Positions 2,683 through 26,157 of a stretch of 64,000 nucleotides of DNA are shown here, piece after piece (positions within the stretch are counted from its first letter, which is position 1; each line of letters starts with the position of its first letter). The stretch covers positions 270,196,001 to 270,260,000 of the forward strand of contig NC_091469.1 in NCBI RefSeq assembly GCF_036971445.1, read 5' to 3'. The position numbers and the translations under genes are program-made. A model generated the notes under the pieces. That model saw only the letters and a program-made list of their open reading frames with translations. It was not told the origin of the DNA and ran no database searches. Origin of the DNA: Narcine bancroftii (taxonomy: Eukaryota).

Positions 2683-2849
2683 CAGTAATTTAGTACCACA
2701 CCCTGAGTAGGGAATGGCTAGCAGCAGATGAGTGTCATTTCCAGTGATGTTACAGGAAGCATCATTGAGCTGCAAGCTTTTGTCTGGCAGATTTGAGACC
2801 AAACTTCTTGGCACAGTCAGAATCATAGCATTGGACAAACACTGCAGAT
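2683..2849 (-). CDS. Uncharacterised ZP-domain gene, coding exon 10 (ZP-N: DLQCLSNAMILTVPRS...LQLNDASC...AIPYSGCGTKLL)
   Basis: tttgcag acceptor and gtatgt donor, 167 nt, phase 1->0. The C..M.L.V / L.D..C / CGT pattern is typical of ZP-N. Confidence 0.88.
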
Positions 2850-3409
2850 CTGCAAATAGAGACAAGTGAGCTATCATGTTATGCTGCAACAAACCTACAC
2901 ATTCATCCACATTGAGCAACCTGAAGTTCCTCTTTCACAAAAGATGCTCTTTCTCAATATAAACTAATTTGGTGTCAGCTGTCAACTTGTGCCATTACAT
3001 CTCCAACTACATGGTGCTGTAAATTTGTCTCCTGTCTCTACCATAAAGCAAAAACTAGCTGAACAATTCAAAAATGTAGTTCACAATCTTTTATCGTCAT
3101 AGATATTTATAGCCAAGAAGAGGCTTTTCAGTTATTTGTGCCCATTGTTGCTCAAGTCAAGCCATGTTATAGTCAGGAAATTCTGAAGAAATTAGTTGAC
3201 ACAACAAATCTTCTGATGAAAGATGGAGAAATATTTGTTTCTTTGTCATTAATAATCTACAAACAAAATTTTTTTTTTCAGAAAACTCATTGGCTGTTTT
3301 ACATTGCAGAAAAATAGGTTTTTGTTCAGGGGAATTTTTGAAATCTTATAAATAATTAATTTCATCCTTTTATTGCCAGCCAGTTTATTAATGCTCTTGA
3401 ACAATCTTG

Positions 3410-5570
3410 TTAGAACCATAGATCATTACAGCACAGAAACAGGCCTTGTTGCCCTTCTAGTCTGTGCCAAAAGTCTCACTGACGCATCCAGTCCATTGCT
3501 CTCTATACCTCTCCCATCCATGTACCTGTCCAAATTCCTTTAAAATGTTAAAAGTGAGCCCACATTCACCACTTCAGCTGGAAACTCGTTCCTCACTGCC
3601 ACCATTCTGTGTGACGTTCCCCCTAACTTTTTCCCCTTTCACTCTTAACCTATATCCTTTGGTTTGTATCTCACCTATTCTCAGTGGCTAAAGCCAATCT
3701 ACATTTACTCTGTCTATCCCCCTCATAATTTTAAATACCTTATAAAATCTCCCCTCATTCTTCTACGCTCCAGGGATTAAAGTCCTAACCTGTTTAACTT
3801 TTCTCTGTAACTCAGTTCCTGAAGTCCAGGCAACATCCTAGTAAATCTCTGCACTCTTTCTATCTTATTGATATCTTCCTATAGTTAGGTGACCAAACCT
3901 GCACACAATACTCAAAATTTGGCTTTACCACTGTCTTATACAACTTTAACATAACATCCTAACTCTTGTACTCAACACTTCGATTTACGAAGGCCAATGT
4001 GCCAAAAACTCTCTTTACAAAACTATCCACCTGTGATGCCACATTCAGGGAATTATGTATCTATATTCCCAGTCCCTTCGGTTCTACCGCACTCCTCAGT
4101 GCCCTATCATTTACCGTGTATGTCCTTTCTTGGTTTGTCCTTCCAAAATGCAGCACCTCACATTTGTCTGCATTAAATTCCATCTTCCATTTTTCAGTCC
4201 ACTTTTCTAGCTGGTCCAGATCCCTCTGCAAGCTTTGAAAACCTTCTTTGCTGTCCACAACACCTCCAATCCTAGTGTATCTGCAAACTTATTGATCCAA
4301 TTTATCATCCTGATCATTGATAGAGGTGACAAACAACAATGGTCCCATCACTGATCCCTGAGGCACGTTACTAGTCATAGGCCTCCAGTCTGAGAAGCAA
4401 TCACCCACCTCTACTCTCTGGCTTCTTCCATCCAGCCATTGTCAAAATTCAGTTCATTATTTCACCATGAATACCTAGCATCTGAACCTTCCTGACTAAC
4501 CATCTATGCGGGACTTTGTCAAAGGCCTTACTAAAGTCCATATAGACAACATACACAGCTTTTCCTTCATCAACTTTCCTAGTAACCTCCTCAAAAAAAA
4601 AGCTCTGCAAGATTGGTTAAACATGACGTACCACGCACAAAGCCATGTTGACTCTCCTTAATCAGTCCCTGACTGTCCAAATAATTGTATATCCGATCTC
4701 TTAGAACACCTTCTAATAATTTATCTACTACTTATGTCAGGTTCACCAGCCTATAATTTACAAGGTTACTTTTGGAGCCTTTTTTAAACAACAGAGCCTC
4801 TGCAATTTCTACACTTGCCTCCCTCAAAGTACGAGGAAATATCTTGTGAAGCCACCCTTATTTGCTTTAAGACAGCAAGCACTTCTTCCTCCATGAGCTC
4901 ACTGGCTGTTTTTCTCACCTCGCCACGACTCTGTGCCCTTTTCCTGAGTGAACACTGATGAAAACAAACATTTAAGGCCTCTCCCATCTTTTTTGGCTCC
5001 CTACAAAGCTGACCACTCTGATCTTCAAGGAGACTGATTTTGTCCTTTGCTATCCTTTTCCTTTTAATATACCTGTCGAAACCCTTAAAAGTTTCCTTCA
5101 TATTTTCTGCCAAAACAACCTCAAGCTTTCCTCATTCTTTCTTGAGGTTTTTCTTGCATATTTTATACTCCTCAAGTACCTCATTTGATCCATGTTGCCT
5201 ACATTTCTCTCTTCTTCTGAACCAGATCCCTCGAAAACCAAGGTTCCCTATGCCTTCTAACCTCGCCTTTAATCCCGACAGGAACATACAAACTCTGAAC
5301 TCTCGAAATTTCACCTTTGAAGGTCCTCCACAGACCTGGCACATCCTTGCCCGAAAACAATTTCTCCCAATCTATGCATTCTAGATCCTTTCTCATTTCC
5401 TCAACCCAAAGCCCAGATCTATCCTTTTCCATAATTCATTTGAAACTAATGGCATTATGATCACTGACCCAAAATGTTTGCCTACACGTATTTCTGTCAC
5501 CTGTCCTGTCTCATTCCCTAATAGGAAATCCAGTATTGCATCCTCTCTTGTTGGTACCTCTCTATATTGA
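3410..5570 (-). mobile_element. CR1-type LINE, decayed, with internal deletions
   Basis: Minus-strand fragments LQRDLDQLEKWTEKWKMEFNADKCEVLHFG and IDWEKLFSGKDV...PWF; CR1-like 3' end near 3410. Confidence 0.85.
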
Positions 5571-6059
5571 TGTTTTGGTAGTCATCTCTTATTTATGACA
5601 AAAAAGCATTTCTGTACAGCATCAACAAATGATAGAGGTACAGAGGAAACAGCAGGACATTTATCAATGAGGGTTGATTTTAAAGAGCATCTTAAAGAAG
5701 GAAAGGTAGAGGCAGTAGGATTTATACAGGAAATGCAAAGTTTTGGGCATAGAGATTGGGAAAGTACCTTTTTATTGTTTAATCTCAATTATTAAATTAA
5801 ACTTTAAAAACTACTAGCAAAATACAATCTGCTGGAGAAACTCCGCAGGTCAAGCAGCATCAATGGCAGTAAAAGAAATGTCAACATTTCAGGTCAGAAT
5901 CTTTCATCAAGTCTAATACTTCTTCAGTCACCCCTCAATCCCCAGATTTTGTTTTGCCCAATACATGTTACTTTGCATCCTGTAATTTTATCACAATATC
6001 TGCATTTTAAAATTGTTATTCTTAAAGTAAAATGTACAATCGAATGGCACAAAATATTT

Positions 6060-6595
6060 AAATTTAATTTTTTTAATTTGGACATACAGCACAGTACAGG
6101 TCCTTTTGGCCCAAGAGTCCGTGCTGCCCAGTTAAACCCAATTGACCTACAACCCCTGGTATGTTTTTTAGAATGGTGGAAGGAAACCAGAGCCCCTGGG
6201 AAAACCAACGCAGACATGAGGAGAACATGTAATGGCATTGATTTACCACAGCTCACAAACAAGTAAAGAACACACTCGCTCATTTCTTTCAGCACACCGT
6301 GAAGTCGACTTTCATTTTTATTATTCACCCGACACAGCATTGCATTCTTCAACACCCCAAACACCATCAAGCTAAACTCCTCTGACCTTTTCACTGGCTC
6401 ACTGCCACACGGATGATCCTGACAGTCTCACTCTCCTCCTCCTGTATTGGAGATCCATCATCCGTATACCGAGGCTTAACACACCTGCCATTCATGCTAT
6501 TACTCCTGCACGTCGCATGGCTTAAATGTACTAACTCCTTGCAGACAGCGCGGGATTTGAACCCCGGTCTCAATCGCTGGTGCTATTTTGCTGTC
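6060..6595 (-). mobile_element. HE1-like tRNA-derived SINE interrupted by a ~300-bp insert (about 6228-6526)
   Basis: Matches other copies in the window (gacatacagcacagt..aggcc...ggaaaacc.acgcagacat..ggagaa..tac.aactcct..cagacagc..gggatttgaaccc). Confidence 0.65.
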
Positions 6596-7525
6596 ACTGC
6601 AGTTTGAACTACCAGTAAAATTCTAATAGTACGGCATTCAATAATTTGGAAATTCTAACGTTGCAGCATTTGGTTCACTCGCTGTTCTGGAATGTTACAA
6701 AGGTATCTAGAGGGAAAGCAAAGTGTGAGGCCAATTTCCAGGGTCTGGAATGTGACTAGGGCCAGGTCTGAGGATTGAACTATGGGCCAGGTTGTTGGCC
6801 AGAGCCGGGAATGGTGTCAGGAATACCGGGGCCAGGAATGTTGGAAGGTTTGCAATTGGAACCAGACTCTTGAGTGCTTGAACATCAGGTTCATTGGGAA
6901 CATTTTATACACGCAAAATAAATAAATAGCTAAATTAAGGCGTGTTTGGGTATTCACAGGAATAACATCCTATACTCCAGAAAACCTACCATAAAGCACT
7001 ACCAAAGCCCCAAAGATCATAACAAAATGTTATTGATGTAATGTTAATGTGCTTATTGGGTTCTTAACCTCCAACAAAGCCCATTCCAAAGTGTATGGTC
7101 AAATGCATGCGAGATAGAGTAACTCAATAACAACACTCCATGTTCGGCCTGTAGAACTCTCTACACATATTTTTACAAGCAGAGAGCATCACAAGACAAC
7201 TTTTTAATAGGTGAGAGCCTTAAAATACCAATTAACATTCACAATCAATACTTCAAACACTGTATTTGATCAGATGCCTCCGGTGAGCAGAAAAATACGA
7301 TCAGCATTCCAATATGTATCACAGCTACATTAAAAATAATTTTTTTTATCATCAATTTGCTCCATATAGATTTGCAGTTATAGCTGCTCAGAGAGACTGG
7401 TAAAATTGTTTTGAATGGAGATTTATTGCACTCTGTTTCTTAAAAGTTCTAAAAAAATACAAGAAAATTATTTTGCAGTCTAAATTTGAGCAGCATTTTT
7501 TTTTGTTTAAGGTGTTCTTTCTTAC

Positions 7526-7561
7526 CTGGGGCTAGTGTTTGTTCTTCAAACAAATGTTCAA
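7526..7561 (-). CDS. ZP-domain gene, coding exon 9 (36-nt linker: IEHLFEEQTLAP)
   Basis: ttttaattgcag acceptor, CCAG|gtaaga donor, phase 1->1; joins exon 8 to the ZP-N exon in frame. Confidence 0.7.
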
Positions 7562-9440
7562 CTGCAATTAAAAGAAAAACAAAAATTAGGTTTATAAACA
7601 ATACTGCTTTCTCCTCATTACATCTTTTGTTCTGAGACATCATCTACCTCCGCCTTAAATACATTCAGTTGCTTAATCTCCACTGCCTATGTGATGGAAA
7701 ATTACACAGGATCAACACCTTGAGTGAAAAAATTCTCATCGCGACCAACATCTGCAGACTGTGACTTCCTATTCTGGACTCTCCGGCCAAAGGAAACATC
7801 TTCCTTGCATCCAGTTTGTCTAATCCTGTCAGAATTTTGTTTCAATGAGATGCCCTTTCACGCATCTAAACTATTGTGATTAAGACCTAGTCAACCAAAT
7901 CTCTTCTCAAGGGATTGTCCTGCCATCCCAGGAATCAGTCTGATAAACCTTCACTGCAATCTAGCAAGGATTTTGGATATCAGAACTTCAATCACAACAT
8001 TTCAGGTGTGGACTCCTCAAGGTCCTGTATATTTGGAGCAAGATATTCTTGGCTTCTGTACTCAAAACCTCTTGTAGTGAAGGTCATGATATAATTTCTT
8101 AACTGCTTGCTACATCAATATTTATGGTGTCAGTAACCGGTGCACAAATACCCCCAGTTCTTGTGCATCAACAATTGCAATCCATTACTATTTAAATAAT
8201 GCTCATTTATTTTTGCTTTAGTCCTATCAGAATGGATCAACATAACATGAAACTGGCGCCTGCATTTGATCACTCACTTAACTTGTCTAAATGTTCTTAT
8301 CAACTCTCAATTCCACCCAGTTCCATGCCATCAGCCAGAAGTAATTCAGTTCACTTCCTCATTGTGAATAGCTGGTCCTGAAGGATCAACTCTTGCGCCG
8401 CCCCCCCCCCCCCCCCCCCCCCACAAAATGTACTGTGAATTCCTACTTTTGATTGGGTGACTGGATGCCATTGGATCAATGACTGGCCCTTATTTGCTAT
8501 TTCAGTGAATGAGGAATGTTCAATTCAGTTATGTAAATACAATTATTAAAATCCTAGCTTATAATTATTGATTCAATTGAAACATTAATTTAAGTTCTAA
8601 TTATCTGACAAAGATTTGTTAATTAGAATTCTGTAGATAAATTTTAAAATATCCTTTCTTGTCTTGAAATTGTTGGTCACTTCATTGGCAATGATTTATT
8701 ATTTGTCTCTTTCATCATTTTACCCTATAAAGGGCATCATATCAAGCAAATACAGAGTTGATTTCCTACCAGTTGAAGCTGTATCTATTATTCCAGTAAT
8801 AACAGAAATCCTTGTTAGATTTTCTCCTTGTTCGTTTAGAGATAAAACCAGTGTCTCAGTACAGACTAAAGATCAACACTAGGGCTTTTCTGATGAATGG
8901 GAACTATGTCAATGGATAGCTTGAGCTTTTCATTGACCAGCCTGCATGAGAATAAATAAAGAGGACAACATGATCTGATGAAGGAACTAATTCAGTTAAG
9001 CAGCATCAGTGGGAAGAATGAATTGTTGACAGTTCCCTGGAACTTTTCAAGGGTTTTGACCCAAAATGGTGAGCATTCTTTTTCGCCCATTGACAATGCT
9101 CAACTTGCAAAGTTCTTCCAACAGATTGCTAGGTTGCCAAGATGCTCAAGGTGCCAAGTTGCCAAGATGCTCAGCTTGGCAAGTTCTTCCAGCAGATTGC
9201 ATTTTGCTCCAGATTCCAGCATCTGCAGTCTCTCATGTGAAAAGGAATTAAATTGCTTCAGAAGGCAAAATATGTTTCCAATTGAAAATTGATCTTATGC
9301 TCATGACTTTAGAAGACTTGACATAAAGACTCTCTCTCCCTATTGCAACAGTTAAAAAAAATACTGAATTCCTTTCTGCATTGGAATGAGGAACAAAGTA
9401 CCAGTACAATTTTTTTTAAAAATGGTTTTACAATACATAC

Positions 9441-9478
9441 TCAGCACAATCCAAATGCATCGTGGTTCTGACTGGAAT
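9441..9478 (-). CDS. ZP-domain gene, coding exon 8 (38 nt: GFQSEPRCIWIVL)
   Basis: ctttcattcag acceptor, gtatgt donor, phase 2->1; continues the exon 7 motif VCF...G.QSE.RC. Confidence 0.8.
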
Positions 9479-10262
9479 CTGAATGAAAGAAAAAATGAAC
9501 AATCAGGAGGTATTATTTTGGAATGACACAGAAACCCCTAAATTTTCTGTCTGACACACAGAGTCCTGATGGAATCTTAATCTTCACTATTGGAAGGTTC
9601 AATCACAAAGAATGCAATTCAAACATGCCTGGTCACCCAACCTCAACTCTAGGAATTTGTGGTTTGAGCTCCATTCCATGCTATTGATAGAATGCTGGAT
9701 ATTTGCAGACTTCAGCCTTTGCATGGATTTGGTGAATCAGCAAATAAGATGGATCGTTGTTTAAATAGCTACTGACGATCCCTTGATATACTTTGCAAAA
9801 GAGAATGGAGTTGGCTTTTCCTGGTTTACTGGCCAACATTTCTCCTCAAACAACCTTACTGAAATAGTGATGTGACATGATCATTGTATTCTAGATAAAA
9901 ACAGGGAAGGGCAGTTTGGATTTGTAGAATGTTTCTTTTCTCTCTGACGTAAAGAGATTTATCTCATCAGACACATTATGGTGGAAGGTGGTGTGGTTGA
10001 GCAGCAGTCACGGTTTCCATTTTCCTTCCATTAGGTTTTCCTAGTATTATTTGTGAAATAAATTACACACTAAATTATAACATTAATCCTCAAAAAGTAA
10101 ACAAGTGTTTAAATTTGAAGACTGAAATTTTAAAAACTCCAAGTTTATCTATAACCCATTATCACATGTAATCAGTGGTAGACCATGTTAAAATTATGAT
10201 TTTCATTTAACACCAAGGAAATCTGATTCTGATAACGACCCCTTGCTTAGGGTAGTTTTTAC

Positions 10263-10421
10263 CCTGAAGAAGTTGTTGAGAGAAAGCACACCGGAACTTG
10301 CTTGGGAGTAGTGTGTGCACCCACTGACCAAGAAACATTCACTGACACAGATTCATCATCCATACTCCAAATATCTGACTTGAGCAATCCATGGGGACCC
10401 ACGACTGTGAAGGTAGTGATC
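10263..10421 (-). CDS. ZP-domain gene, coding exon 7 (RITTFTVVGPHG...VSWSV...PVCFLSTTSS)
   Basis: ctatttttgacag acceptor, gtaaaa donor, 159 nt, phase 2->2, open frame. Confidence 0.85.
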
Positions 10422-11191
10422 CTGTCAAAAATAGAGAGGAGAAAAGCAGAATTAATTATTTCTCAACTTTCATGTTTTTAATTTTTTGCCATTGTTAGTG
10501 TGGTTAAAGTGAAGCTTTTTAAGTGATGAGATTATTATCATAGTATATTGATAATGGTAAACATAAGAGATGACACCTTAACCTATGCTACAGAAGGGCA
10601 GTTGTTAACTGAACACATTCTGGATGTAATGCTATTGATGGAGCAAATGGCCTTTCAGCATACCTTTTTTTAAGTTCTAAATTGTTCAGTGAATTTTACA
10701 AACCACCAATAATACATTTAGTGTAAATTATATGACATAACTGAGAAACTTAATCATACACAAATATTTTCATTTTAAAAAAAAGTGTTTCACCAATAGG
10801 CAAGACTTTTATTCAATATGAAACTGTGCCAAAGAGAACAGAATAAATATAAATCCAGTCTCAAACACGTTAATTTAATTGTCCTCAGCATGTGCAGTTA
10901 AAAACATTCAAGATCATTGGTGTTGGACTCGAATGGATATCTCTTGGATTGCTCTATCCACAGGATTCAATTTATACACTGTGAGAAAAGAGAATTAGTG
11001 TGAAACACATCGAGGATGGCATCATCAATAAAATTCTTAACTAGATCAATTATGTATAGGCTCGACTGAGAAATATGTGTCAGTTTAACCGAGGTCTCTT
11101 TAACTCTGAAAGTAAAATTTTGAGTAGGTGGCACTTTTTATTCAGGTGAAAAATCTATATCATTAGTAGTATTCCAGTGTAAAAGAGATAC

Positions 11192-11333
11192 CTTTCATTT
11201 AAGCTGAAGGCATTTATTGTAAAGTTAATCTCATCATAATTTGAAGCATATATTCTTGCTCCATTGGGAGGTGTTGGATGAACAAATGTAGGCCGAAATA
11301 TTCCAAATGCACATTCTGATATAGCCTTTTCCA
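11192..11333 (-). CDS. ZP-domain gene, coding exon 6 (VEKAISECAFGIFRPTFVHPTPPNG...AFSLNE)
   Basis: cttttgcag acceptor, AG|gtatct donor, 142 nt, phase 1->2. Confidence 0.85.
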
Positions 11334-12624
11334 CTGCAAAAGATGGGAAGATAGTTCAACAGATGCACAGAATGTATTACAATATAAAGTGGATGCCTCA
11401 ATATCTCTAATCATTGCACCTGGTTTCCTACCCCCGACACAATATTGTAGTGATAGAATGCTACCACCAGGAGGAGTCAGAGATGGAGTGTGTAGCCTTT
11501 GGGAAAGGTGTTTCATCTTGGGTAAATCAGGATGGATGCCTCCACACGAGGTCTGGCATACGTATGTTGTTTCTTAGTGCTGTTTGCTAGTTAATAAATG
11601 TAGTGTTTAAAAAAAAGCATCAAATATGATGCTCAAAGAATTCTGTAAACTCTAGTGAGTACTGTCATCCTTAACCATTGAACTTTCCTCTTCACTCCTT
11701 TAATAGCAAGTGACAACTTTGTGTATTACAGAAAGACAAGGAGCTCACACATCTGTATAATCTGTCATGTCCAGCCTTTCTTTCTCCAGCTCTCAATCCA
11801 CATTACCAAATATAGAGTACCAAATTATTAACATAAAACTTAATAGGGATAATGCCTCTAAGTAACTGCTGTTGTAGTTGCAATACTACATTGTATTTTA
11901 ATGACCAAGAGCTCAGTTTCAACACCCTCTGATTGCTTCTAAAGATAAATTTACCTCAATTGCACCCAATCTTGCATCATGACTCCCTGTGGATGCCAGA
12001 TCACTTTCATGATGTCCCCTTGGAAGTCATATAGTCATTTTTTTTCCTCAAGTATTCCCTTTCTGGGTCATCTCCAAGCCATTACCATTTTCAGTCTGGC
12101 TTGCCTCACTCTAGTTACATTACATTGGGATGACATGAAGTTCATGTTGCTGCAACATCCTCTACGGGTTCTTCAGCACTTTTCAACTACTGACAATTTG
12201 CAATGCAACCTTCTCTTAAAACGTTCAGCATAATGTGCCCAGAATCAATAATCGTGTGAAAAATAAGAAACAGGTAGATATTCAGATCATCCCCAGAACT
12301 TGGGCATTTTTACATTCTCTGATATCCTTTCAACATTTCCTTGTTACCACAACCTGTGCTGAGCTTTTTTTTTTAAAAATTAGACATACTTCTGTACTAC
12401 CAAACAACCACAATCAGATAGAGAATCATAATTAATAGGCTTTAATCACCTTAGTGTCAGCACAGTTTGTATGTTGCTGACCTGGTTCCAAGGCAAGGTA
12501 CTGAGTGAGGGGTTTGGGCATAACAGCCTTTATGGGGATATCTGGGAGGGGAGTCACAGGTCCAGGGGGTGGGACAGGCCTTACAGTATATACATACATC
12601 TATATACATAGTGGTAGCACCAAA

Positions 12625-12845
12625 ACTTCAGGATAACAGGCCCTTCCAGCCCATGAGTCCGTGGTGCCCAGACACCCTAATTAACTGACAACCCCCTTAT
12701 GTTTTAAAAGGTGAGAGGAAAGCAGAGCACCCAAAGAAAACCCATCCAGACATGGGGAGAACTGTCCAAAATCCTTAACAGCACCAGTGACCCGGGTACG
12801 AACCTGGTGCTGTTATAGTGTTGGGCTAACTGCTATGCTAACCTG
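12625..12845 (-). mobile_element. HE1-like SINE
   Basis: Shares the aacaggccc...ggaaa.cagagcaccc..agaaaaccca..cagacatggggagaac core with other copies. Confidence 0.6.
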
Positions 12846-13544
12846 TGTTACCCAATCGTGCTTCTCTCCTTGTTTGTAGACTCTTGTAACGGCTCTGAAA
12901 AACCGGTGAATGGACTCTCTCGTGCTGACCAATCAGATTTCAGACCTCCTTCAAACCTCTTGTCATCATTATGAGTAATCCCACTGTTCTGAGAAGGCAA
13001 AGTCATACCAAATGATGTCTTTGCCTCAGCTGCTCATATAATGCTCTGCCCTCCACTGACCTTGGAATGCCTTTTGCTCTGAACAATTCCTCCTGGTCTA
13101 ACATCTGACCAGCTTGTTTCATTGCCACACCACTGTGTTTCTTAACCTCATGGTTGCTTCAGATATTAATACCTTCAAATACCTAGTATTATCTTGCCAT
13201 TGTGATGCAATCTGTGCTATTTTTAAACTTTGCCTATTCACCTTTACTGGGAGTGCATACCCTGTCACAACTGTAGCACCATCTGAATTGGGCATTCTAA
13301 ATGCAGGTGGCTTCTATAACATCCAGACCCAAGCATGTTTCCTTTGTGACTGACTGCTTTCCGGATGGGCCCACTAGTAACAGTTGTGTGACTCATGGCT
13401 GCTGTAAGCATTTTTGTGGGCTTGCTCCCCATTGGCATCTCAAAATCACTGTCTCACAGCTTTCACTAATGAATTTAGTTTATTGTCACGTGCTCTGAGA
13501 TACAGTGAGAATCTTAGTTTTGTGTACTATCCAGAAAATTTAAA

Positions 13545-14110
13545 AAACCTCCAAAGGGTTGTTAACTTGGCCTGTGACTTCATGTCTTCACTTTATTGAG
13601 GACATCTACAAGACATAGTGTCTTAAGAAAGCAGCCTGTATCCAGTGGTTCTCAACCTTTTTTGGTCTAAGGCTCACATGACATCTGGCTTAACATGTGG
13701 TGGATGACCAGTGGCAATGACTGAGCAATACTTTCAAGTCAAAGGCAGTTCTGTAAGAAATACATTTTAGCTAATTTAAAGTATTTTATTTAACATTTAT
13801 TAAGTCCAACATGGCAATGCACTGCATGGCCCACTGATTCAGAACCTCTGCAGCCTCAAGGAGCCCCACCACTCAGGCCATGCCCTCTTCACTCTGCGAC
13901 CATCAGAAAAAGGTACAGTTACATGCAGACAGGCACTCAGCAGCACAAGGACAGCTTCTTTATCTCTGCCATCAGATATCTGAATGAACAATGAACCACA
14001 GACTCTACCTTACTTTGCCTTTTGCTTTTTCTTGCAAAATTTTTATTTATTTTGTAATGTGGTTTTTATAAATTTTTATAACAATAAATTCCGATTCTAT
14101 GCAGGGAACG
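13545..14110 (+). mobile_element. Rex1/Babar LINE 3' fragment interrupted by a hAT-type MITE (about 13643-13850)
   Basis: Similar to the 3' end of the 20525-23420 element (aggacatctacaag...cacaaggacagcttct...aataaatt.cgattct). The insert starts CAGTGGTTCTCAACC and ends AGAACCTCTG. Confidence 0.7.
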
Positions 14111-15214
14111 TAAATAAATCTCCACTCATTGGCCCAATTTTTGATTTAAAAAATGCACAGAAAACATTGGAAAAGCAAAGTAAGAAGACGACTTGCAATC
14201 ACAGTCAAACTGGGTTTTGAGCATTTTAACATAACAGGCAAATCAGACTCATGCACAGAGGCTTCCTGCCATTCCAGAAGCTGCTCTGTCATCTCTGAGT
14301 GGTAGAGGAACTGGCCATCTCTGCACTAGAAGCCATCCTGCATACCAAAACAGAAAACAATTGGAAATTGCATTTTTTTTTTGCATGGTGACCACAGCAT
14401 CGGACCACTGAAGGGCTGTGAGGCTGAAAAACACGCAGACGGTAGGCTGTTGGCGACCTGAGGCGAGGAACCCACGCAGGCTCTGGGCTGCTGGAGACTG
14501 TGCTCAAAGGACTCATACCAGGCTGCAGACTGCTGGAGACTGGCTGAAGGGGTACCAAGATCACATTCTCTGTTTTATTACATGACAATAATTTGGAATC
14601 TTGAATCTCCTTCTCACTGTACATGCCCACATCAAAAAAAAATCTAGATAGGAACAAGGTCTTTTCTCATTGTCTTTGCTTCTTTCTACAGTACATTGCT
14701 TTTAATTTGTCCAAACAGGTTTTATTTTTCAAAATACCTCACCCATTAATCAAACATATGGATAGTTTCTCAGGTATAGCACTGAAGAATGATGACCAGA
14801 GGGTCCGACAGCAGTTGTACTTTTTTGGGGGGGTGCGGTTCTTCATTCTGGTAATTCTGGTCTGAGACAGAAGCGTGCAACTAACTTTCCTGTTCCTGAC
14901 CATCAGCACAAATAAAGAAGAAAGACTTAAGCAGAGATCGGCTCAGGACTATTGCACTGGACAACAAAGATTTGCTACCTGAACACATTTGGGGGCATTT
15001 TATAGATTTTTGGGCTGCTGATCATGAAAATTACCTTCAAATTTTCATATCATGTACCGTCTTTAGATATGACGTATTTTGTGATTTCCTGTCATATTTT
15101 AAGCCTACTGGCATATTGCCCACAAAACAAGCTTTCTTGGTCAGTCGAAACATGCCTGGACAGTGCAGGTGCTATGTAACTATTGTCAGGCTATAAGCAG
15201 GTCACATATACAGA

Positions 15215-16045
15215 ATCATATTCAGATTTATTGTCAGAGTACATACATGACATCACATACAACCCTGAGATTCTTTTTTTCTTGTGGGCGAGGCAGAATT
15301 ACTACTTCTTGGTAGTGCAAAAAAAGTGTACTTAAGATACACATGTAAACAAATAAAGAAATGTAAACAAACTGATTGAGTTTGTTGTTGAGGACTCTGA
15401 TGGTGGAGGGGTAACAGCTGTTCCTGAACCTGGTGGTGCGAGTCTTGTGGCACCTATACCCCTTTCCTGATGGCAGCAACGAGAACAATCCTTGATGATT
15501 GTTGCCATCCTCTGAAGGCAGCATTCCCCGTAGATGTTCTCAATAGTGGGGAAGGTTTTGCCTGTGAGGTCTTTTGGATAGTTTTACGCTCAGGGGTATT
15601 GGTGTTCCCATAGCAGGCCATGATGCCACTGGTCAGCACACCTTCCACCACATTTCTGTAGAGAGTTGCCAGTGTTTCTGGTGTCATACCAAACCACTGC
15701 AAACTCCTGAGGAAGTAGAGGCATGATGCCATTAATGGGCTGAGTCCAGGAAAGATCCTCCAAAATAGTGACTCGCAAGAACTTTTGGCTTACCCTCTCC
15801 ACCTCTGATCTCCCAATGATCACTGGATCATATACCTCTGATTTTTCCCTTCCTGAAGTCAACAATCAACTCTTTGGTTTTGGTGACGTTGAGTGCAAGG
15901 TTGTTGTTAGTGCATCATTCAGCCGTTTTTAATCTCCCTCCTGTATGCTGACTCGTCACCTTTCTTTATCCAACTTTCAGCAAATTTGTAGATGATGTTA
16001 TTGTCGTACCGAGCCACACATTCATAAGTATAAAGTGAGTAGAAC
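15215..16045 (-). mobile_element. Rex1/Babar LINE 3' fragment
   Basis: Minus-strand VERVSQKFL.VTI.EDLSW, LYFLRSL..FGM, and an aataaatctgaat..gattctg tail. Confidence 0.8.
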
Positions 16046-16322
16046 AGAGATGCTAACCCTAATGCTAAATTTAATACATTAATTCAATGTTTCTCCAACT
16101 TCCTACATGATACAGCAAATCTGAAATTATCTTGTACTCAGCTTCAAGCTGTCTATCATGAATCCCAATATTTTTTTAGGAAGCAAACTTTAAAAAAAAA
16201 TGTTGTCAGTGTTACTTGCAGCTCTGTCTCCTACATAGTGGAATCTTGCTCATTTGTGCTTCCACTTGGAAGAAACTTCAGGAAAGAAAGGATATAAATA
16301 GGGAAAAAAAGGAACAGCTTAC

Positions 16323-16533
16323 CAATGATCGCAAATTGCATGGGAATGGAACTCAAGCATTTTGCACTTTTAGTGGATGAAGCAGAGAAATCATCTTCGA
16401 AAGCAGAGTACACGGTCTGTGTCCCATTGCTGTGGGTCAGGAGAATGGTTTCTCTTGGATACTCATCGACCATCAGTTCCAAGGTGTACACACCATTAGT
16501 CCCAAACCCATTATATTGAAGGATGCAATTTTC
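16323..16533 (-). CDS. ZP-domain gene, coding exon 5 (ENCILQYNG..GVYTLELMVDEYPRETI...LSSIPMQFAII)
   Basis: cttgcag acceptor, G|gtaagc donor, 211 nt, phase 0->1; lies inside ORF 16231..16698. Confidence 0.88.
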
Positions 16534-17049
16534 CTGCAAGATATCAGGCAAGACAAATATTTTTTCTTCTCTAAATATCTTTATTACAGAGCCCAAGAGT
16601 CTTTTGCTCATTTTTTGCCAGGATTGGGATCTCTGAAAAATCTGTTTTCCTTTCCTTCTACAATTGTTAGGCTTTAAAAACCCAACGTTTGAGCCCACTT
16701 AATTATTTTATCTATACTTTTCATCAACACTAAACTCTTGCTCAATGGCATTAAACATTCACTGTGGTTTCACAATTATAAAAAAAAACAAATGGATATA
16801 AAAATCGAGTCATTCAGGGCAAGGTGACTCAGAGTTTAGATTACAGCTCCTGCCACAACTTGTCTCAGAACCTCTGAGCACACATGATGAATTGTAGAGG
16901 TGTGAAATGATCCAGAGTCAGGGCATCAAACCCACTCCATCAATGACCTACATCACTGCAATGACATTCTCAGTCAGGAGGTATGTAATAGAATCAAGGG
17001 ATTATTGACTCTGAAACAGCCATGTCCAGGAAGCCAATTCACTTCATAA

Positions 17050-17645
17050 TAAACAAACCAAGAATTGGTGGAGGAACTCAACAGGCCAGACAGCAACCAT
17101 GGTAGAAATGGTCAGTCAACCTTTTTGAACAAAACGTTTTATCAAGACTAGGATATAAAAGGTAAAATTACATACATAATGGGGAAAAGGAGATGGGGTC
17201 GAGACCCAAAGGAGAAAGGACAGAAGGTGTAAGAGGTGAAGAGATGGATGGAGGGAGAAACCATCAAGAAGGGGACGGGAAGCAAAGTTAGAGAAAGAAA
17301 ATAAAATGAATATAGGATTAGGTAAAGAAGAGATGGAAAGGGTGCAGATGGGGATATGGGTAAAAAACAAAATCGATGTTCATGCCATTATGTTTAAGGC
17401 TGTCCAGGTGAATTGTGAAGTGTTGTTCCTCAAATTTGTGTTTAGCCTTACCCTGACGATGGACGTGGCTAAGGACAAACATGTCACTGTAGGAAGGGTT
17501 GTGGAGTTAAAATGATTGATTCCAGGAAGTTAGACCCACAAACAGAGCATCGGTGTTCAGCAAAGTGGTCACCCAATCTGCATTTGATTGCACCAATGGA
17601 GAGGAGGCCACACCAGGTACACCGAATGCCCTAGATTAGGTTGCA
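17050..17645 (-). mobile_element. Penelope-like element remnant (GIY-YIG endonuclease end)
   Basis: Minus-strand translation of about 17550-17640 gives IRCTWCGLLSIGAIKCRLGDHFAEH, a degenerate CGLLYIGETKRRLGDRFAEH. Confidence 0.7.
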
Positions 17646-18090
17646 CGATGGGCATGTTTTTTTTTTAAATTTTGCTTAACTTTATATTTAATTTGTTTAG
17701 CTATTGTTCTCATTTTAACATTTCCAAAAGCTTTCAGGAATGGTGAAGTATCTGGAATGCCTCTCAACACAGAGACACTCAGTTCAACCTAATCAGAACT
17801 ATTTAATGCAGGCTGGAATGAAAAGTTCTGGCCATGGGCCAGATCCAGTATATGTTCATCAACACAGGGAGGAGGTTTTTAAATATTGGAATGGAGCAAA
17901 GATTCTAACAGAAAATAAAGTAATTCAAGTCCAAATTAAATTTATTTTGTCTAATTCTGCCACCTAAGGCAAGTGATTTTCAAGGAACCGGTGTGTGTGG
18001 GAAGGGCGGGGGGGGGGAGGGGGGTGAGGGGAGAAAAACTTAATGGAACAGACTGATTTAAACCAGAACATAGGAAAGACATTTAACTAC

Positions 18091-18229
18091 CTGATGCAAC
18101 TTAACAAAATCATGTTGGGTACATTGGGCACATTCATGCCTTGCCTGTAGTCCATAGCGGCAATTTATAATATCTCCATTCCTCTCATATATGGTCAGGT
18201 TATAAGTGGCATTGCAATTCTGAGGCACC
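18091..18229 (-). CDS. ZP-domain gene, coding exon 4 (RVPQNCNATYNLTIYERNGDIINCRYG...ECAQCTQHDFVKLHQ)
   Basis: ttttccccag acceptor, CAG|gtagtt donor, 139 nt, phase 2->0. Confidence 0.88.
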
Positions 18230-19131
18230 CTGGGGAAAAAGAAAAGAAGACTCTTGATAAGAAGATAATCCAGTCAGCAGGATGTGGAATGCTCAGCCTG
18301 ATCATTATTTTCAATCATATCTCATCATACTGGATAGCCTCACTTTATAAGGTATTGCTTTGTACAATCTCCAAGCTTCCCTCTAAATTCCTCTGAAGAG
18401 CTCAAAGAGATGTAAAGATATTAACAGGCTCACACTGCAATGTCCATTTTTGGGCACTTTCTACAATTAACTCGAGCTTTATTTCCCCCCAACAAATCCA
18501 GAAAATGAGATCAACTGTATGTAATTACACCGAGGTTAATCAATTTGCTCCTAGTTAAACATGATCAAAAAGGTTGGTCTGGGACTCGCATTTAAGCCCA
18601 ATAATTCTGAAATCAGAATGTGCCAATGCTAAGCCCAGTTAATTTTATGAGATTTATTTGTTGTTTAAAATAGGCTGCGTGGAAACTGTTTAAATGAAAG
18701 TGACAGATGAAAACTTTCCACTGCTTTTCTCAAAGCAGAGCCTGCATTTAATTTAACCATGAGGATGTCCTTGGTAATGTTAGAGGTAAAGAATATTAAA
18801 ATAATTTTAAAAAGCATACCCAAGGTTTGGCACCTTATTTGTGTTGTTTTAACCAGTCCATATTTGAGCTCATGTCCAGAGCATAGTGATTGACCTCAAA
18901 ATCTTGGTTGAGGAAGAGAAGTCCTGACCACTTGGCCTGATTTCTTGCTAGAGAGATGCTGTTCAGGATTAAGCTAGATAACCTCCATGGTTGAATAATG
19001 GTTCATTGTCTGGAGGAGAGCATGCATGACTATTGAATGAAGCACTCAGGACTGCACAATGAACACCTTCAGGGAAGAAGATGGCAAAAAATGGGGGTAG
19101 TATGATTGAAATGTAGATTCTGATGCTTTAC

Positions 19132-19284
19132 CTTAAGACAGGTAACAGAGGAAGTTGTGGAGGTGCATTGACTGCTGCATCATCCGAGCGCTTTCCCAAA
19201 TCCGCAAAGAGAGAAAACGTAAATTGAAAGCTCTCTGTTTCCCTTGAAGACTCTATGTAGGGTGACCAACAACAACCATATGAC
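19132..19284 (-). CDS. ZP-domain gene, coding exon 3 (KSYGCCWSPY...ADLGKRSDDAAVNAPPQLPLLPVL)
   Basis: tttgtttacag acceptor, AG|gtaaag donor, 153 nt, phase 2->2. Confidence 0.88.
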
Positions 19285-20059
19285 CTGTAAACAAAAAAAA
19301 AGTCCTGCTTACTTCTGAAAGGAGGTTCATTGGACTGGCAGTAGTGCTAAGTTGTCGAAATCTGGCTATAGCAGCCCCTGGCACCCTTTCCCCACATCCC
19401 CATCCCATAACCACACCACCTCAAATTCCCCGCCACCCTTCAAAAACCAGTATATTTCTAGTCCTCAGCCAAGCCGAGTAGATTGCTGAATTCTGACTCT
19501 CCGGCTTGTCTTTTTCCTTTAGCTTGCTTCCTATCTGTTTTTAAAACTGCACAGCTATGTCTGAGCTCCTGTCAGAAACTCAGTGACATGCTAAATATAT
19601 CTCTATCTTCTTTAGTGGATGATGAGGTGTGGTACATTAGGCAAAATTATGATCATGTAATTCTGAAAGCCAAATGAAATATGGAAAAAAAATCAGCTAC
19701 AAGCCTTGGAAAAGAATTAGAACTGCTATAAAAGTGGTTTGACAAGATAGACCATGAGTCATGACTAGTCATGTGCAAAAAGGGAGCATTCTTGGAGATA
19801 AATTATCGTCTGTTAACGAGATGGCTGCATGAACCATGATTTTAGTATTAAACATATTTTCAATAACAGGGGTATCGGTTAATTGGGTATAGATTGGGCA
19901 GCTTGGACTCGTGGGTCGAAATGGCATGTTACAGTGCTGTATGTCTAAATTTAAATTTAAAGAGATTCACCAGGATATTGCTGGGCTTTAGTTACAAGGA
20001 GACATTGGTTAGGCTGGAGTTGTTTTCCCTGGGGCACAAGAGGCTGAGGGATGATCTTA

Positions 20060-20189
20060 TAGGTTCTCAATCTTTTTCTGTCCACTCACATACCACTTTA
20101 ACTAATCCCTGTGCCATCAGTGCTCTGTGATTAGTAAGGGATTGCTTAAGGTGGTATGTGAGTGAAAAGAAAAAGGTTGAGAACCACTG
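20060..20189. mobile_element. Short hairpin-like hAT-type MITE inside a CR1 3' fragment (about 19960-20500)
   Basis: Ends GGTTCTCAATCTTTTT ... AAAAAGGTTGAGAACCACTG; internal arms cactcacataccac / gtggtatgtgagtg are reverse complements. Confidence 0.7.
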
Positions 20190-20524
20190 TAATAGAGAGT
20201 ATTAAAGGTATTAGGGGCATAGAAAGAGTAGATAGTTACTGTATTTTATTTTAAGGGTAGGGAAGTCTAAAACTAGGAGACCCAGGTTTCCAGTGAAGGG
20301 AAAATATTTAAAGGAAATCTGAGGGGCAAGTTTGATCAACACAAGTGCTGTATGTAAAACAAGATGGCCGAGAAGATGGTAAAGGTGGTAATCACAACAT
20401 TTGAAAAAGCATTTGATCAGGTACATATCTAGGAAAGAAATAAGGGAATACAGGAAAATAAGATTAAAAAAGATTGACATCTTGATTAGCACAGATAATT
20501 TTTATTTAAAATGTAGCCATACAG

Positions 20525-23420
20525 GATAGAATTGGCAATCTCCATCAGGGCGAGGGACCTTTAAATGGCTCACACAAGTACAACAACTCCTCCACGGCTG
20601 TTTTAAACAGCTCAAGCAGGTACAACAACAACTCTAGCATGGACCCATGAGCCAGGTAAAGAAGACCCGGCCACTTTGGTGCCGAGAAGGGCTACAGGTC
20701 AAGCTGAGCAGCCGGGACCTGAGGCTTCTGCTCCCTACCATCCTCCTGGCCAACGTACAGTCCTTGGAGAACAAACCTGATGAACTCCAAGCCAGACTTC
20801 AACATCAGAGAAACATCAGGGTCTGCTGCTATATGATCTGCTTTACAGAAACATAGCTAAATGCGGACATTCCGGACACAGCACTGTAGCCCAAAGGCTA
20901 CACCCTCTATCGCACTGATCGAAAACTGGCATCTGGAAAAACCAGGAGAGGTGCTCAGACATGACAGTCATGTCCCAGTCCTGCTCCCTGGACCTAGAAC
21001 ATCTGGCGATCAAGTGTCGCCCATTCTACCTTGCCGTGGCAATTCACTGCCATCATCCTAGTTACAGTTTACATTCCGCACCTGGCTAACGTCAGGACTG
21101 AGCACTGTGATAAACAGCCATGGGGCAGCACATCCAGATGCCTTCCTGATCATTGTGGGAGACTTCAATTAGGCCAACCTGAAGAAGTCTCTGACAAACT
21201 ACCACCAACACGTCACATGTGAGACCATGGGAACCAACACACTGGACCGCTGGTACACCACCATGAAAAACGCATACCAAACCATACCACAAACGCACTT
21301 TGACAAGTCTGATCACCTGGCTGTACTTCTAGTCCTGGCGTACAAGCAGAGACTAAAGACTACAGCGCCAGTGGTGAAGACGATGATGGCGTGTCGAGGG
21401 AGGTGGAGGAGCATCTGCAGGACTGCTTTGAATCTGTGGACTGGAACATATTCAAGACTCATCCATAGACTTGAATGAATATGCAACAGATGTCACTGAC
21501 TTCATCAAGACCTGCATGGATGAGTTTGTGCCCACGTACAAATACTGGGTGTTCCCCAACCAGAAGCCCTGGATGAATCAGAGAATCTGCAACCTGCTGA
21601 GGGTAAGAACAAGGGCACTTAAGGCTGGGGATCGAGATCTTTATAAAGAGTCCAGGTATGACCTTGAGAAGGCCATCTCCAAAGCAAAGTGGCAACTCTG
21701 GAGGAAGCTAGAGACAAAGACAGATACATGCCAGTTATGACAGAGAATGCAGGCCATTACAGTCTACAAAGCAAAGACAAACACTATAATGGCTGCGATG
21801 CTTCACTACACGATGAGATGAACACCTTCTATGCCCACTTTGAGAAGAACTAAACAATGCCTACTAGAATCCCTGAAAATGCTGAGGGCGCTGTGATATC
21901 TGTCTCTGAGGTCAACATCATTCAAGAGGATGAACTCTCACAAGGCATCAGGCCCTGAAGGCGTATAAGGCATGGTATTGAAAATCTGCACCAACCAACA
22001 AGCCACAGTATTCACGGACACTTTCAACCTCTCATTGTGGCAGTCAGAGATACCCATCAGTTCAAAAGGACATCAATCATCCTGACACCCAAGAAGAGTA
22101 GCGTGGGCTGCCTCAACGACTACCACCCAGTAGCACTAACATCTACTGTGATAAAATGCTTTGAGAGGCTGGTCATGGCCAGAATTAACATGTACCTAAG
22201 TAAATATCTGGACCCAGTGAAATTTGCCTATTGTCACAAATCGCTCCACAACAGATGCAATATCACTGGCTCTCCACTCAGCTCTGGATCACCTCGAAAA
22301 CAGCAATTCATACATACAGCTGCTCTTCATAGACTACAGCTTGGCCCTCAATACCATTATTCCCTCAGTGCTGGTCAAGAAGTTACAAACTCTAGGCTTC
22401 TGTACCCCCCCCCTCCCCCCCAACCTCTGCCACTGGATCTTTGGCTTTCTCAAGACCACAGTCAGAACGAATTGGAAACAACGTCTCTTCCTCACTGATC
22501 ATCAACACAGGCGCACCGCAAGGATGCGTGCTTAGCCCACTGCCGTACTTGTGATACACCCACAACTGTGTGGCCAGGCATAATTCAAATGCATCTACAA
22601 GTTTGCCAATGACACCACAGTTGTTGGTAGAATCACAAACAGCAATGAGGATGCGTACAAAAGTGAGACTGATCAGCTCGGTGAATGGCGTAACAACAAC
22701 AACCTTGCGCTCAACGTCAGCAAAATCAAGAAGATGATTGTGGACTTCAGGATGATATCAGGGGAACTTGACCCAGTCCTCATTGAGGGCTCAGTAGTGG
22801 AGAGGGTCAAGAACTTCAAATTCCTGGGTGTCAACATCTCCAAGGATCTACCTGGGAGCCTCCATGTTGATGCAATCATAAAAAGGGCTCACCAGCGGCT
22901 CTACTTTATGAGGTATCTGAGGAGATTTGATATGTCACTGAAGACTATCGCAAACTTCTACAGGTGCACCGTGGAGAGCATTCTGGCTGAATGCATCACT
23001 GCCTGATACGGAGGTGCCAACTCTCAGGACAAGAATAAACTCCGGAGGGTTGTTCATTCGGACTGTGATGTCTCAGGCACCACTCTATCAAGGACATCTA
23101 CAAGAGGCCGTGTCTTAAAAAAAGCAGCTTCTATCCTTAAAGACCCTCACCACCCAGGCCATCGGGGAAAAGGTACAGGAGCCTAAAGACAAGTACTCAG
23201 TTGCACAAGGACAGCTTCTTTCCTCACTGCCATCAGATTCCTGAATAATCAAGAAATGGATTAGGGTACTGCCGTACTTTTCATGCTTTATTATTGTTAT
23301 TATTAATTTTATTTTTTATAGTAATATTGAAAGATGATTATAATATGAATGTCTGTGCTGTGATGCTGCCGCATAACACCGAATTTCATTACTTGTTCAT
23401 GACAATAAATCCTGATTCTG
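20525..23420 (+). mobile_element. Near full-length Rex1/Babar LINE (APE endonuclease + RT), decayed
   Basis: LPTILLANVQSLENK..CFTET (endonuclease), CLNDYHPVALTSTVIKCFERLV and VERVKNFKFLGV (RT region), tail aataaatcctgattctg. Flanked by ATACAG direct repeats (20519-20524 and 23421-23426). Confidence 0.9.
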
Positions 23421-23622: not shown

Positions 23623-25149
23623 CTATTTGGACCAAACAGCCTTTTTCCATGCTGTACGACTCCGTGTTGATATAGATCAATTGAACAAAGCAAAAATAAT
23701 TCTAAAAAGGAACTGGCATTCCTCATTGCTTAATTACTCTTTATCCCTGTCAAGAAAGACAAAACAAAGGGCAGACCAGAGCTGGAGGAAATGCTCAGTA
23801 AATCAGGCAACGCTGGTGAGGAGATAAATACAGACTCTCTGCTACAGATGGAGAAATTGCCACTTCTAATATAAACAGTGCAAGCGAGCTAACTGAAAAT
23901 ATGGAACTCAAAGCACTAAATCGCAAGCCAGGTCATGGTTATACTGGCTGATTGTTCTTCAGAATAAAGCTGCGAACTGCACTTGCAAAATGACAAGGCT
24001 TTGTGCCTTACTCCGCAAAACCTGAATGCTCTCAAACTATGGATATTAATATTCTAATTCTCAAAAAAATCATTTATGTCCTATTTAATGGAGCCAATGA
24101 ATATTGGATAATGCATAACAATGACCCTGTGGAGAATTCCATTTCTAGATCTGCATCAATCCACTTTCATCATGCTGTAAATTCTGGCATTTCAAACCTT
24201 ATTTGGAAGTGCCTTCAACCTGCTGTCTTTAACCCCACGCCCCAATTCACTAATGACTAGGTGGGGAGATGAATGCCTTTGCTACTGGTAGCATCATCCT
24301 ACAGAAATATTCAATGCAACTTAAATGTCTTCTCAGGGAAGGGGGGAGGGGGACGGGAGGTTGGAGAGGTCTTGGCAGGGATTAATTCATTTCAGGAAGG
24401 TTAGGAAAAGAATCCCAAATTTCAGTGAATACATATTGAACTAATAATTCTTAAATGTAGGAATGGAGTGATTGAAGGATATAGAAAAGAAACTAAATGG
24501 TTAAAAAGTGAAACAGTGAAAGATAAAGTTGCAGAAGACTGAAGGACAAGATCAAAATGATGTTAGAACAGGGACATAAGCTGATTTATCAGCAAGGATA
24601 TTTTTATTATGAGTAAATTTGAGAAGGCAACCTGAGGGCAATTTGTTGTTACTCAACCTGATGCAAGAGAGGAGGCTGAATAGATTGATTTCTGGAGCAC
24701 ACAAGCTGGGGGTGGATAATTCAAGTCTAGAGATGACAAAGATGTAGTTGAAATGGATGTTAAGTTGATCCTCTTGGTGAAGGTTGTAATCTGTGTGTTG
24801 AAACTCATTATGTGTGTAATGCAAATCAAACTGAGTGTGCAACTAGGCAGGGGGCTGGGAAGTTTCCGCTCAGTTTATATCTGCTCTTTCAGGCATTTCT
24901 GACGTTCCTGTTATAGAATCTGGATTATCCAAGGTATTTATCAAAGACATTCTGACGGTGCAAGAGGTGACAGTGGGGGAGAAGAGGTTGAAAGGGGTCC
25001 CTTGCTTACAAGACCTTATACTTGTACACAGGGAGGAGGTAGATGAGTGATGAGGGAAGACAACTCGAAAGAGGTCAAACAGCTTCAGAGGTGAAGGAGA
25101 CAAGACAGCTGCTCACCGATTGGACTGGCATTGCTCATGGTCTCAAATT

Positions 25150-25375
25150 TGAGCAGCACAGTTAGTGAAACAATTAGCATGACACCTTAATACCTAGTGA
25201 CCCGCCGGTTCAAATCCATTGTTGGCTGAAAGGAGTTTGTACATTTTCCCATTGAGATTCCTCCAGGTGCACTGGTTTCCTCTGGCATGTTAGTAGGTTA
25301 ATTAGTCGTGTGGCAGTGAAGGCTGATGGGTTGGAAGGACAAGTTATCACGATGGATCTCTAAATTAAAAATTAA
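25150..25375 (+). mobile_element. HE1-like SINE (plus orientation)
   Basis: gcagcacagttag...ggttcaaatcc...aggagtttgtacatt..ccc...ggtttcctc, the reverse complement of the other copies. Confidence 0.55.
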
Positions 25376-25741
25376 ATACCAACCGAATAACCACTTCGAA
25401 GAAAAAGTAGAAAACGGGATAATCTATGGATCTGACCGATAAACTGTGGAGGTTTTTGAAGGTTGGCCGAAAGACTGGAATTCTGTAATTCTATTGTGAT
25501 TATTAATGGTGACTGGTGAGTGGTGAGTTAAGTGACAACAGAGTGAATCAGGGAAGGTGGAGTCAAGCAAAGAACTGGGGAGGGCTTCGGGTAATGAGAG
25601 AGGAGCTGTCACTGAGGTTGGTTTCAATATAAAGGGTTAAATTGAGGGAAGGGATGAAAATAAATGTTAAAGAAAAAAGATGGATCATCTAGTATTTTGC
25701 CTCAGATTAAATAAATTAGAATGAAAATAGAATCCACGTAC

Positions 25742-25923
25742 TTCATATCCAGTGGGTCTGTGTCAAGAGCAATTACCGTCTCTCCATCCAGCAGACACCA
25801 GTTTGTAGTGTAGTTGCCATCTTCCACTGCTCGAGTTCTGGAATAAGAGCAGTTTAGAGCCACACAAATTTCATCTGGGCTTTGGGAGCATGGCAGATTG
25901 ATTCCTCTGTAATACATGTGCAC
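25742..25923 (-). CDS. ZP-domain gene, coding exon 2 (VHMYYRGINLPC...NWCLLDGETVIALDTDPLDM)
   Basis: atatcag acceptor, AA|gtacgt donor, 182 nt, phase 0->2; intron 1 is 108 bp. Confidence 0.82.
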
Positions 25924-26031
25924 CTGATATATGCAATTTAATAGTCAATAAACTAGCAAGCTAGGATTACTTCATATGAAACAATTTGTTCACACTGTAA
26001 ATTAACACAGCTGATATACAAAAATCAGTAC

Positions 26032-26157
26032 CTGTAATGTTCCATTAACCAACAAAGTTTCCAAACCAAAGGATGCACCAAAGTAGGAGAACTGCATCGG
26101 ATAGCAGGCTTGAAAGAAGGCAGCACTTATTGCCAATGTCCACATATAAAACCCCAT
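26032..26157 (-). CDS. ZP-domain gene, coding exon 1 (signal peptide MGFYMWTLAISAAFFQACYP...NGTLQ)
   Basis: ATG in GCTATGG Kozak context, hydrophobic signal-like N terminus, CAG|gtactg donor. An upstream in-frame ATG at 26283 also exists. Confidence 0.78.

Follow-up and report, generated by a model that had tools for sequence, protein, structure and literature searches.

Does the ZP module encoded by a gene of the electric ray Narcine bancroftii build extracellular filaments, or does it carry a receptor that stays on the cell surface? The question is raised by the window, a 64,000-nucleotide stretch of DNA (NC_091469.1 270196001-270260000), which we analysed together with 150 kb further left. 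A reading made from the letters alone (the sequence-only reading) had proposed, on the minus strand, an uncharacterised secreted protein in which an unnamed N-terminal region, hereafter the head, is fused to a ZP module and displayed on filaments. Our analysis reveals that the product is a real, spliced, single-pass type I membrane glycoprotein of 705 aa, anchored by a transmembrane (TM) helix and not simply secreted. We give about an even chance to the view that it acts as an uncleaved type I membrane protein, in which the ZP module is a stalk and a head of the Dictyostelium Sib type binds extracellular partners on water-exposed epithelia.

A re-check of the sequence returned the ten minus-strand exons as first read, with AG/GT ends, 1353 nt in total and a stop-free frame of 451 aa. 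Extension to the left, where ZP-C and a membrane anchor had been expected, revealed four further exons, 4.9-15.3 kb left of the window, that supply the rest of ZP-N, ZP-C, the external hydrophobic patch (EHP), the TM helix, the tail and the stop codon. The exons are as follows, with the evidence for each in brackets.

26032..26157, minus strand: exon 1 (coding part), signal peptide and start of head domain D1 (sequence, orthologue alignment)
25742..25923, minus strand: exon 2, head domain D1, Sib-N-like (sequence)
19132..19284, minus strand: exon 3, GCCW, end of D1, and the RSD...N.PP linker into cadherin-like D2 (sequence, contigs, alignment)
18091..18229, minus strand: exon 4, D2, with RVPQNC and ERNGD (family DxDGD) (sequence, contigs, structure model, alignment)
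16323..16533, minus strand: exon 5, remainder of cadherin-like D2 (sequence, contigs, structure model)
12843..13056, minus strand: alternative exon in intron 5, 5' end provisional (joined to exon 6 in one contig of one run; single-copy DNA)
11192..11333, minus strand: exon 6, first part of Ig-like D3 (sequence, contigs, structure model)
10263..10421, minus strand: exon 7, Ig-like D3 (sequence, contigs, structure model)
9441..9478, minus strand: exon 8, final D3 strand, QSEPRC (sequence, contigs)
7526..7561, minus strand: exon 9, linker of 12 residues (sequence, contigs)
2683..2849, minus strand: exon 10, first half of ZP-N (sequence, Pfam match)
NC_091469.1 270191050-270190671, minus strand: exon 11, 380 nt, outside the window (sequence)
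NC_091469.1 270186907-270186808, minus strand: exon 12, 100 nt, outside the window (sequence)
NC_091469.1 270183077-270182921, minus strand: exon 13, 157 nt, outside the window (sequence)
NC_091469.1 270180786-270180659, minus strand: exon 14, 128 nt, outside the window (sequence)

The 14-exon product is identical, letter for letter, to residues 43-747 of XP_069754849.1, which the database lists as an 'uncharacterized' protein of Narcine bancroftii, in agreement with the uncharacterised gene with signal peptide, head and ZP module that had been read from the letters. The NCBI model begins 42 codons upstream, at an in-frame ATG at 26283; these extra 42 residues are not shared by orthologues, and 14 of 15 orthologue rows begin at the Met at 26157. 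Junction support, which the sequence-only reading had hoped to find in reads, came from contigs of two sequencing runs of one study, which are RNA by guess only (no run is recorded as RNA) and which cover 6 of the 13 junctions. Specifically, all six junctions that lie within 6400-23400 (E3/E4, E4/E5, E5/E6, E6/E7, E7/E8 and E8/E9) are spliced, and one 2433-nt contig spans E3-E7 without a gap. Close orthologues, with 57-76% identity, are present in 11 other shark and ray records; the skate annotations (P0003, P0019 and P0020) break the gene into head-only and ZP-only models, one of them named CUZD1. Chance exons were rejected as an account of the ten-exon gene.

Read in the frame of exon 6, the alternative exon contains stops, and the next in-frame Met is M380 of XP_069754849.1, so that a transcript of this kind would encode neither the signal peptide nor the greater part of the head. 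It possibly reflects an internal promoter. Contig depth in the same run is 310 for the alternative exon versus 25.5 for E3-E5, values that are unsuitable for ranking isoforms. A repeat origin was rejected; the DNA is single-copy.

The protein comprises, in order, the signal peptide, a three-domain head (D1-D3), a short linker, ZP-N, ZP-C, EHP, TM helix and a short tail. In the AlphaFold model, the head forms three beta domains (pLDDT 90.7), predicted to be Sib-N-like (D1), cadherin-like (D2) and Ig-like (D3), and the cadherin-like and Ig-like segments noticed earlier correspond to D2 and D3. The Foldseek neighbours of the head are only generic Ig and cadherin chains, a kind of match list that cannot exclude a family. 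D2 is a single predicted cadherin-like repeat without tandem repeats bearing calcium-binding linkers. The family acidic positions D169/D171/D173/E223/D224 are partly substituted here (ERNGD, VDEYP), and the partly eroded DxDGD motif of D2 in the model may bind calcium. The ectodomain carries 15 N-glycosylation sequons, including all ten reported before. No vWA domain was matched in the Narcine protein and the model has no room for one; likewise, no CUB domain was matched in P0001-P0003 at E ≤ 1, nor among 64 relatives.

The ZP module is complete. In XP_069754849.1 numbering, ZP-N (PF23344, 44.5 bits versus a cut-off of 24.7) spans residues 441-526, with four Cys at 441, 470, 488 and 526, while ZP-C (PF00100, 32.8 bits versus a cut-off of 24.6) has six Cys. 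The EHP strand, VSAGPVHI, aligns with the GP2 EHP when the whale-shark orthologue is used. The TM helix (708-735) carries GMSLGG and is followed by a basic cytoplasmic tail of 18 residues, KRSFVRLQYRGPTRSFH, without NPxY. From rays to lungfish, coelacanth and alligator, TM helix and tail are conserved like the ectodomain (35-42% versus 34-50% identity).

To place the head, we searched with phmmer and obtained 337 clusters at E ≤ 0.001; the family survey rests on the best 150 of these 337, of which 20 were named besides the elasmobranch set. Named members come from lungfish, coelacanth, alligator, gharial, sturgeon, paddlefish, bichirs, bowfin, several teleosts, two frogs, two tunicates, clam and coral, bearing out the suggested kinship with teleosts and aquatic invertebrates. 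No bird or mammal is among the named members, and no search was dedicated to absence there. The head is a mobile module, found in tandem triplicate, on Thr/Ser/Pro-rich stalks, or with EGF, SRCR, sushi, D8C, NIDO and chitin-binding domains. Its structure neighbours in the Atlas are echinoderm ZP proteins, rotifer clusters, and Bacteroidota clusters with Por_Secre_tail or CHU_C tails (TM score 0.58-0.61). Teleost relatives P0022, P0027, P0031 and P0049 have two to three tandem heads and no ZP match. Three ZP-less teleost relatives with Thr-rich stalks (P0045, P0058 and P0066) share an unnamed C-terminal domain of ~50 residues and have no predicted TM helix.

A name for the head comes from SIBA-E_N (PF24907), the Pfam model built on the Dictyostelium integrin-beta-like proteins A-E. 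It matches 4/88 aligned relatives, and in a rescan of 31 proteins it was found in seven, above the cut-off in four. The proteins that pass the cut-off are P0143, P0163, P0146, P0110 and the Bacteroidota protein L151. The Narcine protein itself has no direct SIBA-E_N match, so the Sib link is made in two steps. Specifically, the clam relative P0143, whose database name is 'integrin beta-like protein A', passes SIBA-E_N, and its alignment to the elasmobranch profile takes in 286 columns (99.3%, E 1.5e-20). Furthermore, a profile of invertebrate heads matched 3/251 Bacteroidota genomes, and the best match spans the whole head (E 2.4e-16), scores 44.3 bits with SIBA-E_N and has the order signal-THF...CCR...NNPP...DPDND. 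The motif order suggested earlier for Bacteroidota secreted proteins, CCR...N.PP...D.D.D, was thereby recovered. Through clam, coral and bacterial relatives, and judged by sequence, the Narcine head is homologous to the N-terminal part of the Dictyostelium Sib receptors. The earlier description of the head as unnamed does not wholly hold, since homologues pass SIBA-E_N, even if the Narcine protein itself does not match it.

Some further observations concern this family. The Bacteroidota head homologue L150 (1-2475, minus strand) also has Dictyostelium CTDC repeats (PF00526, 8 stretches), a second amoeba-bacterium link. Clade B (see below), invertebrate and bacterial heads have S/T/D-H-F directly after the signal peptide, with Tyr for His in clade A, making this His a candidate functional residue on sequence grounds. 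A profile search of long proteins (1449-4135 aa; 3943 candidates) gave one result, a mussel EGF protein, and no Dictyostelium Sib. NKG2D profile matches (E 0.002 and weaker) and arterivirus GP3 feature matches (0.83) were rejected as weak.

Compared through Pfam models and relatives, the Narcine protein resembles Dictyostelium SibA-E (PF24907, PF24908 Ig_SIBA-E_2nd and PF24910 Ig_SIBA-E_3rd) in its homologous head, type I topology and glycine-containing TM helix. It differs in its size of ~700 aa, in having neither vWA domain nor NPxY tail, and in the ZP module that replaces the Sib stalk. SibA is described as the main candidate Dictyostelium adhesion receptor, with a vWA domain and with NPxY motifs that bind talin (excerpts of PMC9197732 and PMC12686525). 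The Bacteroidota proteins L150 and L151 (SIBA-E_N, Big_9/He_PIG repeats) share the whole three-domain head and its motif order, but have fewer Cys, and repeat stalks and type IX secretion tails in place of the ZP module.

A head-only tree (63 rows hand-picked from about 180 proteins; quick IQ-TREE, SH-aLRT support only, no bacterial outgroup) resolves clade A (18 rows, support 100), clade B (27 rows, 99) and invertebrates (18 rows, 100). Clade A includes the Narcine gene and roughly follows the species tree, with elasmobranchs, lungfish, coelacanth and alligator, then bichir, sturgeon, bowfin and teleosts; by this sequence-based tree, the clade A gene is orthologous across jawed vertebrates. 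Clade B, its sister, has the same head and ZP architecture and contains sturgeon, frog and expanded teleost genes, often with mucin-like inserts or no ZP module; some are called CUZD1 by NCBI despite the finding of no CUB domain. CUZD1 orthology was rejected; no CUB domain was matched ahead of the ZP module. Searches of the Narcine genome for a clade B head (queries P0038 and P0064) found none, and searches for paralogues (P0003, P0064, P0038 and PF24907) returned nothing beyond the Narcine locus and unrelated ZP-C exons; such searches have low sensitivity and cannot establish that clade B is missing, and a PF00100 search listed 26 matches without the Narcine locus among them.

The architecture, first taken to be undescribed, had already been remarked on in cod. 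In the excerpted text of Vestrum et al. (2018), cod 'Cuzd1-like' is described as novel, pairing an N-terminal domain of unknown nature with a ZP module; it is conserved in fish and amphibians, has no clear mammalian orthologues, and its genes rise 3.1- and 4.9-fold in microbially stressed larvae, together with zg16 and pglyrp2 (PMC5938384). These cod genes would belong to clade B. A gene named Cuzd1, perhaps of this family, is induced in salmon gill during smoltification (excerpt of PMC8129531), and a clam 'integrin beta-like protein A' is listed as down after challenge with a pathogen-associated molecular pattern (excerpt of PMC7430831).

The cod induction alongside zg16 and pglyrp2 is one of the reasons to consider that the protein is shed beside the membrane and serves as a soluble mucosal decoy or agglutinin, like the cargo of GP2 or DMBT1 but monomeric or dimeric. 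Many relatives are, moreover, secreted or mucin-linked without a TM helix, or carry SRCR, D8C, sushi or chitin-binding domains, and some teleost clade A members have a hydrophobic C-terminus and no tail, as would suit glycosylphosphatidylinositol-anchored proteins. However, the TM helix and tail of the Narcine protein are as conserved as its ectodomain and no cleavage site is recognisable, making shedding improbable.

Whether the ZP module polymerises can be judged from motifs defined in uromodulin, whose filaments require cleavage before the EHP, FXF in ZP-C and R415 in ZP-N, the loss of any one of which abolishes filaments (excerpt of PMC7737619). In the alignment, the GP2 FMF position is SSL here, and FXF is found in 0/24 clade A, 22/22 clade B and 4/4 invertebrate rows. 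A dibasic or RxxR site is present in 0/24, 21/22 and 3/4 rows, respectively; the Narcine protein has no Arg or Lys between ZP-C and EHP, so that the furin site expected by the sequence-only reading is absent. The fg-loop Arg, which lies ten residues ahead of the final ZP-N Cys and probably corresponds to uromodulin R415, is Gln in the Narcine protein and Arg in the filament chain 28yj_A. Counted by eye, it is kept in 0/11 elasmobranchs, 12/13 bony clade A rows and 22/22 clade B rows, whereas an automated pattern gave 7/24 for clade A and 20/22 for clade B. The ZP-N/ZP-C linker has 27 residues, versus 29-30 in 21/22 clade B rows, and is not shortened. The rows counted are related, some of them near-duplicates, and the counts thus amount to about one loss basal to clade A and a second in the elasmobranchs. 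Since tunicates retain all the motifs, the polymer-competent ZP module is likely the ancestral state.

With cleavage site, FXF and fg-loop Arg lost, 'filament-displayed' is not supported for the Narcine gene; the term fits sister clade B, which keeps all three. The protein might still be a filament or matrix subunit, its head displayed along the fibre, if it were released by a non-furin protease or entered a heteropolymer with another ZP protein. Such a role would suit the complete ten-Cys ZP module with its EHP, the near-normal interdomain linker, the uromodulin structures that Foldseek ranks first for the full model, and the presence of all polymer motifs in clade B and tunicate relatives. 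We consider it unlikely, because each of the three losses by itself abolishes uromodulin filaments; the insensitive searches for a clade B head in the Narcine genome, which found none, also count against it.

Compared with uromodulin, GP2, DMBT1 and CUZD1, the Narcine protein thus has the same ten-Cys ZP module, EHP, membrane anchor and N-terminal cargo, but a cargo of the Sib type and not EGF, D8C, SRCR or CUB, and none of the three polymerisation features. Closer in this respect are endoglin and betaglycan (TGFBR3), non-polymerising ZP membrane proteins with a minimal interdomain linker (excerpt of PMC7737619), which likewise have a short tail. A growth-factor co-receptor that presents ligand to signalling receptors would share the plan of ligand-binding head, uncleaved ZP module, TM helix and short tail. 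Among solved sequences, TGFBR3 matches the elasmobranch profile best (E 5.7e-4) and ties with a uromodulin-type chain for the wide profile, although only the ZP part is covered in both cases; in addition, one main copy per species tracks the species tree, as in developmental genes. Yet the head is of the Sib type and probably not the endoglin/betaglycan orphan region, the linker is full-length and not minimal, and the head places clade A with polymerising clade B and invertebrate relatives. A co-receptor function is therefore doubtful, and the loss of polymer motifs in clade A looks independent, from sequence comparison, of that in endoglin and betaglycan.

The eroded family motifs, and an alternative transcript that would have no signal peptide, could also be read as marks of a decaying remnant, with the motif losses due to relaxed selection. 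This is very improbable, given that the 14-exon frame is intact, that per-domain identity is 62-86% among sharks and rays, and 27-50% in comparisons with lungfish, coelacanth, alligator, sturgeon and bichir, and that the same losses are common to the whole of clade A.

We therefore return to the uncleaved membrane protein. With no cut between ZP-C and EHP, the EHP would stay docked and the ZP module would form a glycosylated stalk, holding up a head that likely binds microbes, matrix or neighbouring cells. A GxxxG motif follows the EHP in 19/24 clade A rows, in one of them outside the TM core, and the GxxxG of the TM helix may dimerise the protein. The tail, with no NPxY, would not be coupled to talin, unlike that of SibA. 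Water-exposed epithelia as the site of action are the most conjectural element.

ZP proteins with variable cargo, the Pfam models of the head, the RefSeq gene and, in cod, the architecture are already known. We found no paper on a Sib/Bacteroidota link in animals or on a disarmed clade in the literature covered, which excludes subscription papers and supplements. Tentatively, and at somewhat less than an even chance, we propose that an ancient adhesin head common to amoeba Sib receptors and Bacteroidota surface proteins persists in jawed vertebrates on two ZP lineages. One would build mucosal filaments; the other, which includes the Narcine gene, would have been disarmed before the shark/bony-fish split, as a third non-polymerising ZP receptor that arose independently of endoglin and betaglycan. 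In uromodulin, mutants in FXF or in the cleavage site act as dominant negatives as long as R415 is kept (excerpt of PMC7737619); bony-fish clade A proteins keep the fg-loop Arg and have lost FXF and the cut site, the same combination, and could therefore cap or anchor ZP filaments.

These results give a name to the 'unknown N-terminal domain' of a widespread surface protein family of aquatic animals, and tie a vertebrate family to Dictyostelium Sib through a domain other than the vWA domain and tail that are usually compared with integrins. The many fish genes labelled CUZD1 without a CUB domain affect the reading of fish gill and gut transcriptomes. Clades A and B, with the same head and with or without polymer motifs, form a natural pair for testing the rules of ZP filament assembly.

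Directly upstream of the gene, on the same strand, lie exons of TALDO1 (transaldolase), from about 46814 down to 32000 of the window (minus strand); a CpG island sits near 46.5 kb. A 717-aa open frame (minus strand, L012 2803-4956), about 105 kb beyond the left end of the window, has DUF4643 and a 9-residue repeat array; we take it to be PRR33-like, and together with TALDO1 it would point to the human 11p15.5 neighbourhood. A broken gypsy-like retroelement occupies about 49700-53400 of the window (plus strand), with DUF7041 gag-like, reverse transcriptase and RNase H pieces, and a decayed endogenous-retrovirus-like stretch occupies about 55400-58900 (minus strand), with RNase H-, integrase- and env-like pieces that contain stops and frameshifts.

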